A DNA stretch of 64,000 nt from Octopus vulgaris (lineage: Eukaryota), in NCBI GenBank assembly GCA_951406725.2, contig OX597816.1, forward strand, positions 52,142,001 to 52,206,000, in the 5' to 3' direction. The translations under genes and the position numbers were made by a program. Below, in pieces: positions 25,367-63,413 of the stretch (position 1 is the first letter of the stretch; each line of letters starts with the position of its first letter). The notes beneath the pieces are model-generated. The model worked only from the letters and a program-made list of their open reading frames with translations. It was not told the origin of the DNA and searched no databases.

Positions 25367-26618
25367 TTGGGTTAGCAACTAAGTTCCCGCGTTTCTTTTA
25401 GATTTTGGAATTTATTGCGTTTTTAAAATTTAGAATCTATTTTTGAATCATTTTCTAATCTCTTGTTTTTTCCTAGTTAATTTTTGTTTATTTTCAGATC
25501 ATTAAAATGGAATGTCAAGTTAAGAAAAAACGAGCATTTTCGATACCTCCTTTTTGCTTTTAATCAAGGTTCTAAGGCTGCAAAATCTACTCGCGATATT
25601 TGTGCTGTGTATGAAGATGGTGCCATAGCTGAGAAAACCGCTCATAATTGGTATGCCAAGTTCAAAAATAGAAATTTTGACCTGAAAGATGCACCTCGTC
25701 CTGGCCGTCCAGTTGACTTCGAGGAAGAGCGATTAAACCAACTTTTGCGCGAAGATTCTCGTCAGAAAAGGAAACTGGCAGAGAAAATGGAATGCTCCCA
25801 CACTGCTTTAGAGAAGCAACTTCACTCGATGGGAAAGGTTCAGAAGTATGGAGAATGGGTTCCACATGCTTTAAGTGACAACAACAAAAATCAACGAGCC
25901 ACAATCTCCGCTGGTTTGCTTGCGCGTCACCGCTCAACTCATGGACACAAGCAACGATTTCTCTACCGAATAGTTACTGCCGACGAAAAAAGGTGCCTGT
26001 ACATTAATATGAAGCTGCGTAAGGAATGGCTTAGCCCCGGTAAACAAGCGACACCGCGCGTGAAACAAGATCTTGATCTGCGTAAAACGATGTTGTGCGT
26101 ATGGTGGGAATGGGATGGGATTATCCATTACGAATTGCTTGAACGGAACCAAACGGTCAACGTGGAACATTATGTTCAACAGATGGAACGACTCAACACG
26201 GCTATTTAAGAAAAAATACCTAATCGACAGCATGGAGTTCTTCTGCTGCACGACAACACCCGCACTCATATCGCCAAAATGACCAAGGAAGCCATTCAAA
26301 CGCATGGTTGGGAAGTGCTTCCACAACCGCCGTATCTGATTTGGCACCAACGGATTTCAACCTCTTTCAATCTCTTTCAAATGCTATGCGTGGAGTTTCG
26401 TTCAATACTGATGCAGAATTGAGAGCTTGGTTGGATCAATTTTTCGAGTCGAATTCGAGTGATTTCTACCAACGAGGTATTGAAAATATTGTTGAACGTT
26501 GGGAAGAAGTTGTAAACAACAAGGGTGAATGCATTATTGATTAATTAGTTGTTATCTTTTATTAAACCTTTTAAAAAATTAAAATTAAAATACGGTGTGA
26601 ACTTAGTTGCCAACCTAA
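25367..26618 (+). mobile_element. Full-length mariner (DD34D-type) transposon with inactivated transposase (25507-26544)
   Basis: TA-flanked TIRs ttgggttagcaactaagttc / gaacttagttgccaacctaa. Motifs WVPHAL, IVTADEK, LHDNTRTH and DLAPTDFNLF. There is a stop at 26207-26209 plus frameshifts. Confidence 0.95.
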
Positions 26619-27326: not shown

Positions 27327-27473
27327 TCTGAGCGAATATAAATCCAAACTTACAGGGAAAAAATTCAATTTTATTAATTATTTACATTTTATTGTTATTT
27401 TAATTTTAATATTTCTATTATATGTAATTTTCTAGATGGTGTAATTTGAATCGATAAAATGTTGTTTTTTTCA

Positions 27474-27518
<45 letters not shown>

Positions 27519-27521
<3 letters not shown>

Positions 27522-28997
27522 TCACCTCCCACATCATTAAAGTGTTTGAAAGAGTGTTAAGATCAAGGATAGATGACTTCCTGGAGACCCACAAACTCCT
27601 AAATTCAAATCAGCATGGCTTTCGCTGTGGCAGGGACTGTCTAACACAGCTCTTACACCACATTGAAGATGTACTCAAAGCCTTGGGAACAGGTTCGAAC
27701 TCTGACGTCATATATCTTGACTTCAGTAAAGCGTTCGACAGGGTAGACCATAACATCCTACTCTCGAAATTGGCAAATGTTGGAATCCGTGGAAAAGTTC
27801 TACACTGGATTAAGTATTTCCTGGCGAATAGAACGCAACATGTTGTAGTTGATGGAGTCCACTCAAACCCAGCAAAAGTCACCAGCGGTGTTCCCCAGGG
27901 AACTGTTTTGGGTCCGCTACTCTTCATAATTTACGTAAACGACCTTTCCAGTGTCGTACATCACTGCAAAGTGAAAATATTCGCTGATGACACTAAGCTC
28001 CAGCAAATCGTCAATGAAGAAGCAGACCGAACTCAACTCCAGTCTGATCTATATGCTGTGAGTCAATGGGCAGATATAAACAAAATGCAACTGAATGAGG
28101 GAAAATTTGAGCTGATGCATTTTGGAAGAAATTCCTCACTAAAACAACCATACTCTCTTCCTTCAGGGGAACCGCTCACAGCCTCTAACAATATCAGAAA
28201 CCTGGGTGTAATTGTTGATGACGATCTCAGTTGGAGTGCACACATCAACAAGAAGGTTGATATAGCTCGTAGGATGAGTTCCTGGATCTTAAGAACTTTC
28301 CGGTCCAGAGAACAAGGTGTCATCATACCACTTTTTTCCTCCTTTGTACGGCCACACCTTGAATACTGCTGCCCACTGTGGTCTCCTCACACAAGACAAA
28401 ACATCTCCAGAATTGAGTCACCCCAGAGGGCTCTCACTAAACAAATTGAAGGCATGGCTGCTCTCGATTATTGGGATCGCCTTAAAACCTTGAAACTTTA
28501 CTCCCTCCAGCGTCGCCGTGAGCGGTACATCATTTGTACGATGTGGAAAATATACCGCCAACTTTGCCCAAACGACCTAAACATTAGCTTCAAGGTCCAT
28601 CCAAGACTTGGACCACGGGCTATACGTCCCCTGCCAAATTCAAGATCACAACATACATGTACACTGCAACATAATTTCTTTTCCTCAACAGGCCCTGCCC
28701 TATTTAACATTGTCCCGAGGGAGATCAAAGAGGAAAAGGATCCCATCAACTTTAAACAGAGTCTGGATAGATTCCTTCAAAGAATACCAGATAAGCCACC
28801 CATAATTGGATACAACTCACCCAACAAGAACTCACTACTTGAACAAAACTGGATACAACTCACCCAACAAGAACTCACTACTTGAACAAAACTTGACTTA
28901 AACTGGATTCGAATAATCCTATCAGGTGGTGCTATTAAGTTAGACATGGCCTGGACCAATCTCTGGTCGAAACATATCTAAGTTTTCTCTAAGTTTT
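27519..28997 (+). mobile_element. 5'-truncated CR1-group LINE inserted in (TA)n
   Basis: Uninterrupted RT ORF followed by a short 3' UTR ending in (ctaagtttt)x2. (TA)n on both sides. Confidence 0.9.
27542..28885 (+). CDS. Partial LINE reverse transcriptase (447 aa, N-terminally truncated)
   Basis: QHGFR, YLDFSKAFDRVDH, GVPQGTVLGPLLF, FADD, RPHLEYC..WSP and LYSLQRRRER. Confidence 0.9.
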   Translation: MFERVLRSRIDDFLETHKLLNSNQHGFRCGRDCLTQLLHHIEDVLKALGTGSNSDVIYLDFSKAFDRVDHNILLSKLANVGIRGKVLHWIKYFLANRTQHVVVDGVHSNPAKVTSGVPQGTVLGPLLFIIYVNDLSSVVHHCKVKIFADDTKLQQIVNEEADRTQLQSDLYAVSQWADINKMQLNEGKFELMHFGRNSSLKQPYSLPSGEPLTASNNIRNLGVIVDDDLSWSAHINKKVDIARRMSSWILRTFRSREQGVIIPLFSSFVRPHLEYCCPLWSPHTRQNISRIESPQRALTKQIEGMAALDYWDRLKTLKLYSLQRRRERYIICTMWKIYRQLCPNDLNISFKVHPRLGPRAIRPLPNSRSQHTCTLQHNFFSSTGPALFNIVPREIKEEKDPINFKQSLDRFLQRIPDKPPIIGYNSPNKNSLLEQNWIQLTQQELTT

Positions 28998-38635: not shown

Positions 38636-38828
38636 GTTTGTGTGTCTGTGTTTGTCCTCCCCTTGGCAACCGATGCTGGTGTGTTTATGTCCCCGTTACT
38701 TAGCGGTTAGGCAAAAGAGACCGATAGAATAAGTACTAGTCTTACAAAGAATAAGTCCTGGGTCCTAAAAGGCGGCGATGCTCCAGCATGGCCGCAGTCA
38801 AGTGACTCAAACGAATAAAAAAATAAAG

Positions 38829-38830: not shown

Positions 38831-38867
<37 letters not shown>

Positions 38868-39080
38868 TAAGCAAGAAGGGTAGTAATATTATTTACTACC
38901 AGGTGCCCAGCACAAAGGACGAATTAGTCATAAGACAAAAATATTATTCATATAGAAAAATATTATTCATGTGGTTATACAATTAAGGGCTCCTAAATAA
39001 AGATGCCGAGTGCTGGGGACACAAAAAGGGGATGAATTTATCGAGAGTGAAAATCAAAAACGTTTACCGATAACTTTAAC

Positions 39081-39156
39081 AACTCGTACCGCGGTTTCTG
39101 CTTCTTTCTAGCAAAACACAGAATATGTTTGCTAAGGCTGGCTTCATCAGCGAGTC
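39081..39156 (-). ncRNA. Type-I hammerhead ribozyme motif (intact core)
   Basis: GACTCG-CTGATGA-[stem II]-GAAA-CCGCGG-TA-CGAGTT. Stem I is 6 bp. Confidence 0.85.
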
Positions 39157-39542
39157 GCCTGAATTTAATCGAGGTCTGCAGCGATGTGGGGCTATATGTT
39201 AAACCCGACTACTAGCAGATCTTAACTTTTCAAATCTCTGCGCAGACGCAAAATTTACACGGGCATGCCGGGAAGAATTTTACGAATAAATTCATCATGT
39301 AGTATGCGAATGTAAGCAAGAAGGGTAGTAATATTATTTACTACCAGGTGCCCAAGCACAAAAGACGAATTAGTCATAAGACAAAAATATTATTCATATA
39401 GAAAAATATTATTCATGTGGTTATACAATTAAGGGCTCCTAAATAAAGATGCCGAGTGCTGGGGACACAAAAAGGGTGTCCTGCTAGTAGTCGGGTTTAA
39501 CATATAGCCCCACATCGCTGCAGACCTCGATTAAATTCAGGC

Positions 39543-39606
39543 GACTCGCTGATGAAGCCAGCCTTAGCAAACATATTCTGTGTTTTGAGAAACCGCGGTG
39601 CGAGTT
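39543..39606 (+). ncRNA. Mutated hammerhead copy
   Basis: Same motif with a 12-nt deletion in stem II, and GTG instead of GTA at the cleavage triplet. Confidence 0.7.
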
Positions 39607-39923
39607 GTTAAAGTTATCGGTAAACTCGGCATCTTTATTTAGGAGCCCTTAATTGTATAACCACATGAATAATATTTTTCTATATGAATAATATTTTTGT
39701 CTTATGACTAATTCGTCTTTTGTGCTGGGCACCTGGTAGTAAATAATATTACTACCCTTCTTGCTTATATTCGCATACTACATGATGAATTTATTCGTAA
39801 AATTCTTCCCGGCATGCCCGTGTAAATTTTGCGTCTGCGCAGAGATTTGAAAAGTTAAGATCTGCTAGTAGTCGGGTTTAACATATAGCCCCACATCGCT
39901 GCAGACCTCGATTAAATTCAGGC

Positions 39924-39999
39924 GACTCGCTGATGAAGCCAGCCTTAGCAAACATATTCTGTGTTTTGCTAGAAAGAAGCAGAAACCGCGGTACGAGTT
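39924..39999 (+). ncRNA. Type-I hammerhead ribozyme motif (intact core)
   Basis: GACTCG 39924-29, CTGATGA 39930-36, stem II with TAGCAAA/TTTGCTA helix, GAAA 39982-85, CCGCGG, TA, CGAGTT 39994-99. Confidence 0.85.
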
Positions 40000-40096
40000 G
40001 TTAAAGTTATCGGTAAACGTTTTTGATTTTCACTCTCGATAAATTCATCCCCTTTTTGTGTCCCCAGCACTCGGCATCTTTATTTAGGAGCCCTTA

Positions 40097-40141
<45 letters not shown>

Positions 40142-40175
40142 CATACATATATATATATATATATATATACATGCA

Positions 40176-40250
<75 letters not shown>

Positions 40251-40251
<1 letters not shown>

Positions 40252-40645
40252 GGCACAGGAGTGGCTGTGTGGTAAGTAGCTTGTTTACCAACCACATGGT
40301 TCCGGCTTCAATCCCACTGGTGGCATCTTGGGCAAGTGTCTTCTACTATAGCCTCGGGCCGACCAAAGCCTTGTGAGTGGATTTGGTAGACGGAAACTGA
40401 AATAAGCCCATCGTATATATGTATATATATGTGTACGTGCGTGTGCGTTTGTGTGTCTGTGTTTGTCCCCTAGTATTGCTTGACAACCGATGCTGGTGTG
40501 TTTATGTCCCCGTCACTTAGCGGTTCGGCAAAAGAGACCGATGGAATAAGTACTGGGCTTACAAAGAATAAGTCCCGGGGTCAAGTTGCTTGATTAAAGG
40601 CAGTGCTCCAGCATGGCCGCAGTCAAAATGACTGAAACAAGTAAT
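40251..40645 (+). mobile_element. SINE family B, full length
   Basis: tRNA-like head, internal microsatellite and conserved tail. Confidence 0.9.
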
Positions 40646-40659
40646 ATAGATAGATAGTA

Positions 40660-60014: not shown

Positions 60015-63000
60015 TTATGTTGTATCTTTCACTCGCAACTTTCGTGCTACATCCTTCCATCGTTCTTCATACACTCTCCTAGCCAGGCATATTCTCTCCA
60101 GCCCTATCTTCCTTTTCAGGTGAAAGATGAAATAATTCATCAAACCAGGGCCGGAGATGAACTTGCCTGACTGTAAACCTTTCATTCTCGTCTTCCATAT
60201 CACCTCTTTCGCAATTGCTACTACAACGAGAAAACGAAACTTACCTTCATTCACGAGGAAATCCGGTGGGTCAATTTTTGTAATCGACTCAGTCGACAGC
60301 TGTACTCTTCGTGTACCTGACAACAGCTGTTCGGCATAAACCCACACCTCAGACACGTCCGGACAATGAACAATAGCGTGCGGGACGGTTTCCCTATCCC
60401 GCCCGCATCTTGGACATATCGGACTGTCTTGGCCACCGTGCCTTGCGAGTTTATCCCGAACAGGTAGAGCTCCTCTGTAGCATTGCCATGCCAGAGACTT
60501 CTGGAAGTTGTCCAGTGTCCTCGGCTTGAACGTACGTCGGAACAGACTGGCCAGCTGATTATCGTCGAGACCCAGGGTTTCCCCCAAGGTATCTTCACAT
60601 TCCGCCTCTACCAACCCTCTATAGAAGAATGTGGTGGAACCCCCACCGCAGGCGTTGCCCGAGCGACGGAATAGCAGGAGAGCCTTGCGACACTCCGTGT
60701 ACCAAGTACCAAGTTTCGATCTACGATTCAGCCAGGTTTCCCATCCACCGAAACTAGTGAACTTGGTAAACATCAGTTTTGCTAGCGAAGACCACACCCG
60801 TTCACCATCCAGGTAGAGCCACAGATGTCTTAACCTCAGCGCATGTCTGCGCATCATCAGCCAAGGCATCCCTAGCCCACCCTTTAACGGTTGTTGACAG
60901 CAAGTAGAGCGTTTCACAAGTGGTTTCCCGCCCTTCCACAAGAAGTAGAAGAGCTGTCTTTCCAACTTGATCAACCACGAATCAGGGCAAGGAACGACGG
61001 AAAGGCGGTAGGTGATAACCGATGCGATAAACACATTGGCCACCTCCGCCCTCCCTTTCAGGGATAGCCACCGCCAAGACCAGGTCTTGGCTACTGCAGC
61101 CACCTTGCTCGTTACCTCGCCCCAATTCTTCTCTATTTGGAGGTCTGGACCGAACCAGACCCCTAGCAGTTTAATCGGACCCTCCGTCCAACGTCCCACG
61201 ACGCTGTCAGGAGGCATCGACTTGCCTCTCCAGGTGCCGAGTTGCAAGCCGACTGACTTTTCGCGATTAACTTTTGCTCCTGTCACCGTCTCGTAAACCT
61301 CTATGGCCTTGCCTACTTTACATAGGTGGTCCATTTCGGTTACGATGATGGTGATGTCATCCGCGTACGCTGACACTGATTTTCCATTACCTGGCTGTCT
61401 CGGGATGCCGCTCAGTTTTCGCAGTAATGGCTCAAGAGCCATCACGTACAAAAGCGGGGAGAGCGGACACCCTTGACGAACCGAGCGTTTGATTTTGAAC
61501 GGCTTCGACAAGAAGCCGTTCACCCGAACTACCGAGTCGATGTTATCATAAATTTGGATAATCCACCTGAGGAAGCCAAGGCTCAGCCCGAACTGTGCCA
61601 GGGCAGATACCAGGTAACGATGGTCGACCCTATCAAAAGCTTTAGATTGGTCTAAATGGACCAGTGCCCCACCCTTGCCAGAATCACTATTAAACCCCTC
61701 TATAGTGTACCGCATTAGATGGAGATTATCCTGAATGGATCTGCCCGGAACGGCACATGTCTGTGCCTCCCCGATCAGACCATCCGCGACACGCGCCAAT
61801 CTTTTCGATAACACTTTGGCCAAAATCTTCAACTCTGTGTTTAGCAGAGTGATGGGCCTGAAATTATCAATGCACTCCCCCTTGCTCGGGTCCTTTCTGA
61901 CGAGAGTCACTACTCCCCGGCGCACAGATCTGGGTATAAGCCCGTTCTGCTGCCAGTTCGCATAGACCTCCGCCAGTAGGTGCCCGAACAAGTCTGGCAT
62001 ACTCTTATATAACTCATAGGGTAGACCATCCAAACCCGGCGCCTTGCCCGCGCCGCAGTCCGCCATTGCCTCAACCACCTCCTCAGGCGTGATTGGCCCT
62101 TCACAGCCCTCCGCATCTCGCCCCGATAAGCGCGGCAGCCCGTCGAGTAGGTCCGTAAAGGCCCTCCTCCTATCCAGTCCGCCGCACTCACCGAAAAGCT
62201 GAGCGAAGTGCTCCTGAAAGGCCTCACACATCTCCTCGGGTTCGCTTATCAACTCACCTTGTTGGTTCGTCAAAGATCGAATCGTGGCATCGTTACCATG
62301 CTGAGCTTCCACCACTCGGGCCCATCTCACGGCGTTGATTCCTTCACATCCCATATGGCGGATTCTAGCCCTGACAATGCAGCCCATGTGTTTGGCCTCG
62401 AGGTGCTGGTTTAACACCAGTCTCTTGGACGCCACCTGAGCCGCAGAGCCAGTTTTCATGGCTTCCTCTAATTCCTTAACTAGAGTAGTTTCCCTTCTAG
62501 CCTCTCTAGCCACTACTCCTATGCTATATCTAATAGACTCAAACTTGATGGCTCGTTTGAGGGCGTACCACCATTTGTTATTAATGATGGTACCAGATAG
62601 TGCCCTCTGAATTATATTCCTAATCCGGTCTTTGTACTCCTTAATCGCCAAAAGGGACGTATTAAGTTTCCAGTAACCGGATCCTCTATTTTTAACCTTA
62701 TCTATGTCAAGCTTACAAGTGACCATTTTATGATCACTGTAGCTGATCGGGTAAAACTGTGGACACTTAGCTATTTTACTGTCTACTTTTCTAATTAGTA
62801 TTCTATCTAAATATGACCTGGAAGATCCGTCGCTGTTTGACCATGTCCACAATGGAGCGTTCGGAAATTCCAGCCTATAAGGATCTGCTAGCTCAAAGCG
62901 GCTTAGCAGTTCCATGAAGCCACTGTTGCCTTTTCTATCTGGACGCGAGCCAACACAATCTACATCCGCTTTGCAAATTGTGTTAAAGTCTCCTAGCACC

Positions 63001-63404
63001 ACTAATGAATGCGAAGTACCAAGAAAGTTTTCTAATTCACGAAAATAATCACTTTGCCCTGTATGGTTGGGTGCGTAAATTGCAACCAGTCTGATAACTT
63101 TACCATTACTGAACGTCAAATCCATGACGACCAGCCTACCTTCTGGATCTGCAAAAATTAACTTTTTCTCAGGAACCCGGTTTCTTTTTAATAGGACCCC
63201 ACTCCCGCCTGTAGGACTGCCAGGAGAGAAAAAACTCTCGTAGCCGTCAAACAGCGGGAGTAGACCTCTTGGCCCCTCTAACCGGGTTTCTGTAGCAACA
63301 ATAACATCTAAATTACGCGACCTGATATCATGCAGGAAGCGACCTTGCTTCCAGCCTGCTCCCAGGCCGCGCACATTCAAACAACCAACGTAAATGTAAT
63401 CCAT
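60015..63404 (-). CDS. Tx1 ORF2: APE endonuclease, reverse transcriptase and C-terminal zinc finger (1129 aa)
   Basis: LNVRGL, ET, GDFN, LDRI, SDH, GYWKLN, KAPGLDGLPYE, FRPITLLN, LDQSKAFDRV, VRQGCPLSPLLY, AYADD, GGLGMP and CPRC..ETVPH..HC. Confidence 0.97.
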   Translation of the reverse strand: MDYIYVGCLNVRGLGAGWKQGRFLHDIRSRNLDVIVATETRLEGPRGLLPLFDGYESFFSPGSPTGGSGVLLKRNRVPEKKLIFADPEGRLVVMDLTFSNGKVIRLVAIYAPNHTGQSDYFRELENFLGTSHSLVVLGDFNTICKADVDCVGSRPDRKGNSGFMELLSRFELADPYRLEFPNAPLWTWSNSDGSSRSYLDRILIRKVDSKIAKCPQFYPISYSDHKMVTCKLDIDKVKNRGSGYWKLNTSLLAIKEYKDRIRNIIQRALSGTIINNKWWYALKRAIKFESIRYSIGVVAREARRETTLVKELEEAMKTGSAAQVASKRLVLNQHLEAKHMGCIVRARIRHMGCEGINAVRWARVVEAQHGNDATIRSLTNQQGELISEPEEMCEAFQEHFAQLFGECGGLDRRRAFTDLLDGLPRLSGRDAEGCEGPITPEEVVEAMADCGAGKAPGLDGLPYELYKSMPDLFGHLLAEVYANWQQNGLIPRSVRRGVVTLVRKDPSKGECIDNFRPITLLNTELKILAKVLSKRLARVADGLIGEAQTCAVPGRSIQDNLHLMRYTIEGFNSDSGKGGALVHLDQSKAFDRVDHRYLVSALAQFGLSLGFLRWIIQIYDNIDSVVRVNGFLSKPFKIKRSVRQGCPLSPLLYVMALEPLLRKLSGIPRQPGNGKSVSAYADDITIIVTEMDHLCKVGKAIEVYETVTGAKVNREKSVGLQLGTWRGKSMPPDSVVGRWTEGPIKLLGVWFGPDLQIEKNWGEVTSKVAAVAKTWSWRWLSLKGRAEVANVFIASVITYRLSVVPCPDSWLIKLERQLFYFLWKGGKPLVKRSTCCQQPLKGGLGMPWLMMRRHALRLRHLWLYLDGERVWSSLAKLMFTKFTSFGGWETWLNRRSKLGTWYTECRKALLLFRRSGNACGGGSTTFFYRGLVEAECEDTLGETLGLDDNQLASLFRRTFKPRTLDNFQKSLAWQCYRGALPVRDKLARHGGQDSPICPRCGRDRETVPHAIVHCPDVSEVWVYAEQLLSGTRRVQLSTESITKIDPPDFLVNEGKFRFLVVVAIAKEVIWKTRMKGLQSGKFISGPGLMNYFIFHLKRKIGLERICLARRVYEERWKDVARKLRVKDTT

Positions 63405-63413
63405 TACTTACCT

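Follow-up and report, generated by a model that had tools for sequence, protein, structure and literature searches.

The window analysed here is a stretch of 64 000 nucleotides of the Octopus vulgaris genome (contig OX597816.1, positions 52,142,001 to 52,206,000, forward strand), in which positions 38868–40104 hold two tandem arms of one unit, joined head to head between two (TA)n runs (table 1). Unit numbering starts at the base 3′ of the predicted cleavage site, and the unit is 445 nt long. The first-pass annotation of this DNA had proposed a 445-nt period, an inversion near 39477–39481, about 1.5 monomers on the other strand and (TA)n on both flanks. All of these features were recovered: 38868–39476 matches a dimer of 38868–39312 at 99.7%, the inversion is placed at 39476/39481, the right arm measures about 1.4 units, with deletions of 12 and 51 nt close to its inner end, and (TA)n is seen on either side. 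The TGTC filler at the joint may derive from a short fold-back at the end of the left arm. Of the 445 positions common to both arms, 2 differ, and the closest other loci depart from this one at 1–3 of 445; the copy is thus young. No ORF of at least 120 aa was found in 38868–40104, and the RT + GIY-YIG ORF of an autonomous Penelope-like element is absent from the insert. A young, non-coding, hammerhead-bearing unit of retrozyme type, as suggested at first, is supported.

Table 1. Features of the head-to-head insert and of its borders, in window coordinates.
Feature	Positions	Strand	Basis
Left target remnant, (TA)n	38831–38867	none	sequence
Fixed end A, unit position about 216–229, last bases merging into (TA)n	38865–38880	−	end comparison across loci
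Left arm, 1.37 units, unit positions 57 to 222, RNA sense minus; outer end is start site A	38868–39476	−	mapping to unit
Hammerhead motif 1, type I, with intact core and GUA triplet; cleavage predicted between 39087 and 39086	39078–39159	−	motif
Filler of 4 nt, TGTC, at the head-to-head joint	39477–39480	none	sequence
Right arm, about 1.4 units in three pieces (unit 314–420, 433–25, 76 round to 111), ending on the outside at start site B	39481–40104	+	mapping to unit
Hammerhead motif 2, broken: 12-nt deletion after 39587, GUG replacing GUA at 39600	39540–39609	+	motif
Internal copy of the 110-nt B-to-A stretch, equivalent of the Penelope ‘tail’; 19-nt direct repeat and 8-bp hairpin	39660–39770	+	sequence
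Hammerhead motif 3, type I, core intact, stem III palindromic; predicted cut after 39993	39921–40002	+	motif
Fixed end B, unit position 111, last bases merging into (TA)n	40094–40104	+	end comparison across loci
Right target remnant, (TA)n	40105–40250	none	sequence

Copies of a common type of dispersed short repeat lie outside both (TA)n runs (38662–38821 and 40252–40646). Elsewhere, the window contains an open LINE frame of 1129 aa with endonuclease, RT and zf-RVT (60015–63407, minus strand), a second RT fragment (27458–28885, plus strand) and a mariner-type transposase fragment (25481–26209, plus strand).

Three hammerheads, two of them with an intact core, had been announced at this locus, and this was borne out: motifs 1 and 3 possess CUGAUGA, GAAA and the GUA triplet, and the cleavage predicted after 39993 agrees with motif 3. 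Stem I, given as 6 bp, is extendable to 9 bp if G-U pairs are counted. In contrast, the idea that consecutive hammerheads would release a unit-length RNA has to be abandoned here. The left arm has one hammerhead, the upstream hammerhead of the right arm is broken and lies 393 nt, not 445 nt, from the next, and this locus therefore cannot release such an RNA. Two consecutive intact hammerheads, the rule by which Li et al. call a locus ‘active’, are absent from this insert and present at other loci of the family.

The family was traced through 2.8 Gb of genome sequence in 227 contigs. A 17-nt motif near end B has 385 exact matches in the genome (0 for a control motif) and marks 47 loci on the two largest contigs (441 Mb), from which we estimate roughly 300 loci genome-wide. 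We analysed 99 distinct young loci (40 best matches, 20 reached through the ribozyme pattern and 39 through the end motif), that is, only about one-third of the loci. This set is skewed toward end A by the initial query, whereas its subset of 55 loci, hereafter the census (every B-motif locus of contigs C1 and C2, and some of C3), is unbiased by query phase but requires the B motif. Older subfamilies were represented by 68 further stretches (a few overlapping), retrieved with a variant ribozyme pattern and a diverged query. The family is multi-copy and dispersed across many contigs; its unit is 445–456 nt long, is devoid of LTRs and carries one type I hammerhead motif per unit of tandem. The cleavage-site motif has 138 exact matches, many of them 445 nt apart, and tandem arrays of 5–10 units exist, a few of the long ones showing the same variant in two or three units. 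The unit was present in 20 of 24 listed public sequencing runs from seven studies, none of these runs being recorded as RNA; in three runs presumed to be RNA it occurs at low depth, and the one contig that crosses the cleavage site is uninformative on ends or circles. The available text of an octopus repeat annotation (PMC13282606) makes no mention of ribozymes. Two other sequences met in this sampling are a tandem of several heavily deleted units before end A (L090:2844–3520), unlike the clean arrays of other loci, and a distinct inverted-repeat element in a TA run (L038:4907–5177), whose end resembles end B and pieces of which adjoin two other loci (L025 and L046).

Comparison of the loci revealed that the arms of this family have two kinds of ends. 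In the census, 74 of the 83 outer ends, which are 3′ with respect to the RNA, are located at A or B; the two sites are 110 nt apart, and both finish in TATA-like bases that merge with the target. Inner ends, on the other hand, are scattered across the unit. The different start and end phases noted for each run are accordingly real at this locus, but among loci only the inner ends vary. The target is equally constant, with (TA)4 within 30 nt of 143 of 149 outer ends (99 loci). The head-to-head build is shared by 28 of the 55 census loci and by 50 of all 99. Within the former, the outer ends are A + B in 19 loci, A + A in one and B + B in none, the remainder pairing A (six loci) or B (two loci) with another end; the 27 single-armed census loci end at A (17), at B (9) or elsewhere (1). 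Across all 99 loci, the two-armed insertions comprise 34 A + B, one A + A, no B + B and 15 with one end elsewhere. If the count is restricted to loci whose two ends are A or B, A + B is in significant excess both in the census (binomial p = 2e-5, 20 loci) and in the whole set (p = 1e-9, 35 of 99 loci). Older copies (72–98% alike) display the same pattern, with 13 A + B, 12 A + other, one B + other and neither A + A nor B + B, the A + other count including one locus entered twice and at least one (L301) in which BLAST overran past B. Second pieces in L038, L081 and L156 were omitted from the end counts, and very short inverted pieces missed by the segment caller caused L022, L136, L167 and L174 to be scored as single-armed, which counts against the two-arm reading. 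Joints between arms share 1–5 bases at many loci and display short palindromes at a few. The family thus exhibits features of Penelope-type insertions, i.e. an inverted 5′-truncated head-to-head copy, a tail (about 110 nt) on one end only and a microsatellite or AT-rich target.

The arms also inform on the template. The cleavage site is crossed at 40 of the 55 census loci, and 31 of the 55 carry an unbroken run longer than one unit; a single pass over a cleaved linear monomer therefore cannot account for the usual insertion. The permuted, longer-than-unit copies stressed by the first-pass annotation thereby retain their meaning as products of reverse transcription of a template exceeding a single cleaved monomer in length, although their outer ends are two fixed sites rather than free permutations. 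Its appeal to template switching suits the two internal jumps of the right arm, whereas for the inversion, priming from the two strands of the target is the better explanation.

Arms of the same locus are far more alike than arms of different loci. In 31 loci, arm-versus-arm comparison yielded 49 differences in 7915 positions, against 263 expected from other loci, and only 14 of 1086 locus-site observations at common polymorphic sites were mixed, against 486 expected if units were drawn independently. Seventeen variants were carried by all copies of a single locus and absent from the other sampled loci, three of them in both arms, though such ‘private’ variants may have sources among the unsampled loci; in L293, an identical deletion occurs in both arms. 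Such homogeneity is what a single unit-length template for each insertion would produce, although the daughters of a young, homogeneous source array would be homogeneous as well. A pile-up of inner ends at the cleavage site was considered as a sign of cutting in vivo and set aside as weak and unspecific: unit positions 1–20 hold nine inner ends versus 4.2 expected (p = 0.03, uncorrected), none of them at positions 1–4, positions 61–80 hold 13 versus 5.3 expected, and a local palindrome or a variant ribozyme accounts for some ends at positions 8–9. In one older copy (L294:5870–5975), a 37-nt stretch is present three times with its 3′ edge exactly at the predicted cleavage site; this single case could reflect jumps onto a cut RNA end.

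The ribozyme itself has the core, triplet and stem I of a type I hammerhead, together with an A-A mismatch at the base of stem II; an Rfam search at E ≤ 1 and at E ≤ 10 returned no ribozyme match, only microsatellite noise. Position 8 is A only if position 3 is U (14 of 134 locus-level forms), a U3-A8 combination being compatible with activity in hammerheads. A U3-G8 wobble occurs in 23 of the 134 forms, and a stem I pair is swapped from A-U to U-A in seven. Pairing of positions 3 and 8 is required according to Frangieh et al. (PMC11167929), who state this for their C3G/G8C rescue. Above the A-A mismatch, two or three stem II pairs are kept across three sequences, followed by a long extension, the subfamily of the window having the weakest stem II. 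Stem III is palindromic or nearly so across three different sequences, and folding predicts self-pairing of this palindrome, with −12 to −15 kcal/mol, for each of the major subfamilies. The paired changes in the stems and the conserved palindrome can be read as signs that the ribozyme is under selection. For the copy in the window, the hammerhead fold reaches −18.2 kcal/mol versus −21.2 kcal/mol for the lowest-energy fold, and stem III is unformed even under constraint. The fold of the circular unit (z = −2.7 versus 60 shuffles), with A and B mostly unpaired, is at most suggestive. Self-cleavage is likely, perhaps as a dimer as in axolotl; among the frog retrozyme dimers covered in the available text of Li et al. 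(10.64898/2026.07.22.740005), cleavage was obtained in only one of nine. Five unrelated hammerhead-like motifs with palindromic stem III were also encountered in flanking DNA (L025, L034, L039, L049 and L087), such elements being therefore dense in this genome.

We then come to the enzyme. To its own reading the first-pass annotation had opposed a family with fixed ends attached to a coding Penelope-like body; the fixed ends were found, the coding body was not. At about 165 loci, searched through an ORF list for the first 100 stretches and with two query proteins for the others, no array had an RT or GIY-YIG body next to it on its own strand, and members of the lineage as diverged as about 75% identity still lack coding capacity. 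Penelope fragments near L089, L011, L156, L286, L294, L319, L333 and others were considered as coding partners and rejected: they lie on the opposite strand or are set apart by TA runs or distance, and were hence treated as separate insertions. A unit-like terminal repeat was found neither in the one full Penelope element compared nor, by eye, in the 3′ regions of a few others.

The GIY-YIG fragment beside L089 nevertheless led to a young Penelope-like family, with 150 scored matches at 99–100% identity, many in 775-aa frames. This element forms a 4271-nt tandem unit with an RT, a C-terminal GIY-YIG nuclease preceded by a CxxC motif, as described for Neptune and Nematis, and a hammerhead motif. 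Its insertions also have two ends, A′ and B′, about 40 nt apart, and two-armed copies scored by eye gave 13 A′ + B′, three A′ + A′, no B′ + B′ and three ambiguous cases, the position of A′ being blurred because it falls within an internal TA run. As no sequence is shared with the 445-nt unit (best E-value 0.15), we regard it as a candidate enzyme source and not as a parent. Since this coding element forms multi-unit tandems too, multimers need not denote a small circle. This very young family, seen at L205:2127–5722 (G000:C1:27839500–27849400, minus strand), forms tandems of up to about three units and has two overlapping frames, of 454 aa (no Pfam match) and then 775 aa (RT + GIY-YIG), offset as for a −1 frameshift, whereas canonical endonuclease-bearing Penelope-like members are described as having one ORF. 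Other Penelope families are also present in the genome.

Taken as a whole, it is very probable that a Penelope-type enzyme made these insertions by priming at two sites, and we favour, with a fair degree of confidence, the more specific view that the insert is a copy of a non-coding hammerhead retrozyme, pasted into (TA)n by a Penelope-type RT/endonuclease that primed from both target strands, from one at A and from the other at B, probably on a circular 445-nt RNA. By analogy with the retrozymes of mussel and axolotl, a locus with at least two intact units would be transcribed, its hammerheads would cut out a monomer, and a host ligase would circularize it. A Penelope-type protein acting in trans would nick both strands of a (TA)n tract, the preference for such targets being what we observe, and the two nicked ends would prime at different UAUA-like sites, A for one end and B for the other, as the observed ends and their pairing suggest. 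The resulting cDNAs, which often extend past the cleavage site and past one full unit, could stem from rolling-circle copying; repair would then join them through the few shared or filler bases seen at the joints into head-to-head arms, and failure of one side would leave a single arm.

The main competitor retains the enzyme and its two-site, two-strand priming but dispenses with the circle: the template would be a linear transcript that reads through several units of a locus without being cut, or a pair of identical RNAs joined through the stem III palindrome. We regard it as a serious contender, though less likely than the circle. The anole Penelope protein uses mainly uncut RNA in vitro in the results available from PMC11167929, arrays of 5–10 units are at hand as possible sources, the palindrome would pair with itself in all major subfamilies at the energies given above, and the coding 4271-nt element makes tandems as well. 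Against these points, daughters of older arrays should inherit their unit-specific changes, yet only 16 of 131 unit-specific variants occur in at least two loci and only two locus pairs share two; new variants fixed throughout a locus require that some step of the process passes through a single unit, and the signs of selection on the ribozyme need its use for cutting.

The remaining explanations all seem remote. In LINE-1 twin priming, the outer end of the inverted arm is expected next to the inner end of the other arm, and these are not adjacent here. Antisense self-priming, i.e. fold-back from one strand, was proposed for head-to-head Penelope copies by Arkhipova's group in the available text of PMC3846280 and finds an echo in the bases shared at many joints and the short palindromes at a few; in most loci, however, the inner ends of the two arms lie at unrelated unit positions instead of mirroring each other, and the outer ends, fixed in both arms, lie directly against (TA)n. 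The A + B pairing largely rules out both ways of making the inversion on one strand, which we consider improbable. No better placed is a satellite produced at the DNA level, or a piece of the terminal repeat of some coding Penelope element that escaped detection, locally expanded by unequal exchange. Local tandem amplification of terminal repeats is indeed proposed in the available text of Li et al. (10.64898/2026.07.22.740005), the variants repeated in two or three units of a few long arrays agree with it, and the search for a coding partner covered the fetched loci with two query proteins; but the loci lie scattered across numerous contigs, contain fractional numbers of units and have fixed outer ends, and no same-strand RT or GIY-YIG match was seen next to an array at the roughly 165 loci searched in this non-coding lineage. 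An assembly fold-back or chimera, finally, is scarcely credible. No public contig spanned the 39476/39481 joint in four runs, although contigs of other individuals need not hold this insert; the flanks and the arm phases differ, unlike in a read fold-back, about half of the analysed loci (50 of 99) share the build with the same two ends, and the unit recurs in independent public data, as reported above.

The favoured reading, two-site priming on a probably circular RNA, may have wider bearing. We advance tentatively, as an idea with rather less than even chances, that Penelope-type integration is an asymmetric two-strand reaction, in which one complex would hold one circular ribozyme RNA with two UAUA-like sites annealed to the cut (TA)n strands, and two rolling-circle reverse transcriptions would converge head to head. 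Tail and inverted copy would, on this view, belong to the same event, and the non-coding 445-nt circle would be a minimal substrate, recognized by its fold and not by likeness to its helper.

Penelope elements have so far been proposed as the movers of animal retrozymes, in the available literature, from co-occurrence and repeat likeness only. The octopus family carries the Penelope insertion footprint directly. The rule of one A and one B, with a single haplotype in both arms, constrains, further than the in vitro work did, the origin of the tail and of the inverted copy, and the system lends itself to direct test, since the RNA is short and defined, both start sites are mapped, the target is simple and a candidate enzyme is available in intact form. 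The retrozyme class, the Penelope ‘tail’ and the existence of two start sites are already known from published work; apparently new, and useful as a mechanistic footprint, are the per-insertion pairing of A with B and the shared haplotype of the arms, of which we found no earlier description in the literature searched.

As for known systems, non-LTR retrozymes and their circular RNAs have been described, the circles being shown in mussel and axolotl (PMC7229834), and a connection of retrozymes with Penelope elements has been drawn from their distribution and from the similarity of their repeats (10.64898/2026.07.22.740005), as far as the available texts go. With the metazoan non-LTR retrozymes of these two sources, the octopus unit shares a tandem organization without coding capacity, AT-richness, a length of a few hundred bases, a single type I hammerhead per repeat, a short palindromic stem III, dispersed monomers to multimers and the presence of Penelope-like elements in the same genome. 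Its size (445–456 nt) compares with 170–400 nt in the available text of Cervera and de la Pena and 51–972 nt in that of Li et al. It differs from the metazoan retrozymes of those texts in the A-A mismatch at the base of stem II and its long extension, and in its head-to-head arms and two fixed ends, which the same texts do not describe; furthermore, a link to a coding element by sequence is reported there for 24 of 57 frog families (Li et al.), whereas none was found for the octopus unit.

Endonuclease-bearing Penelope-like elements, in the accounts available from Craig et al. (2021, 10.1101/2021.04.23.441226) and for Adineta vaga (PMC3846280), have in common with the octopus family partial tandems, an inverted 5′-truncated copy, a one-ended tail, microsatellite targets and a hammerhead in the repeat; in contrast to them, the octopus unit is without ORF and all repeat, and its tail is about 110 nt long, against 30–40 nt. 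The closest functional counterpart for which data are at hand is Poseidon of the anole, studied in vitro in the available text of Frangieh et al. (2024, PMC11167929), where both strands are cut and extended, two internal start sites delimit the tail, ribozyme mutants still insert, uncut RNA is the main substrate and the protein is a predicted dimer. The octopus family shares with it the two start sites delimiting a tail, the cutting and extension of both strands that its arms suggest, and the AT-rich target. However, the start sites of Poseidon were reported neither to differ between strands nor to be homologous to the target, whereas in the octopus the sites are used one per strand per insertion, lie 110 nt apart and have end bases that match the (TA)n target.
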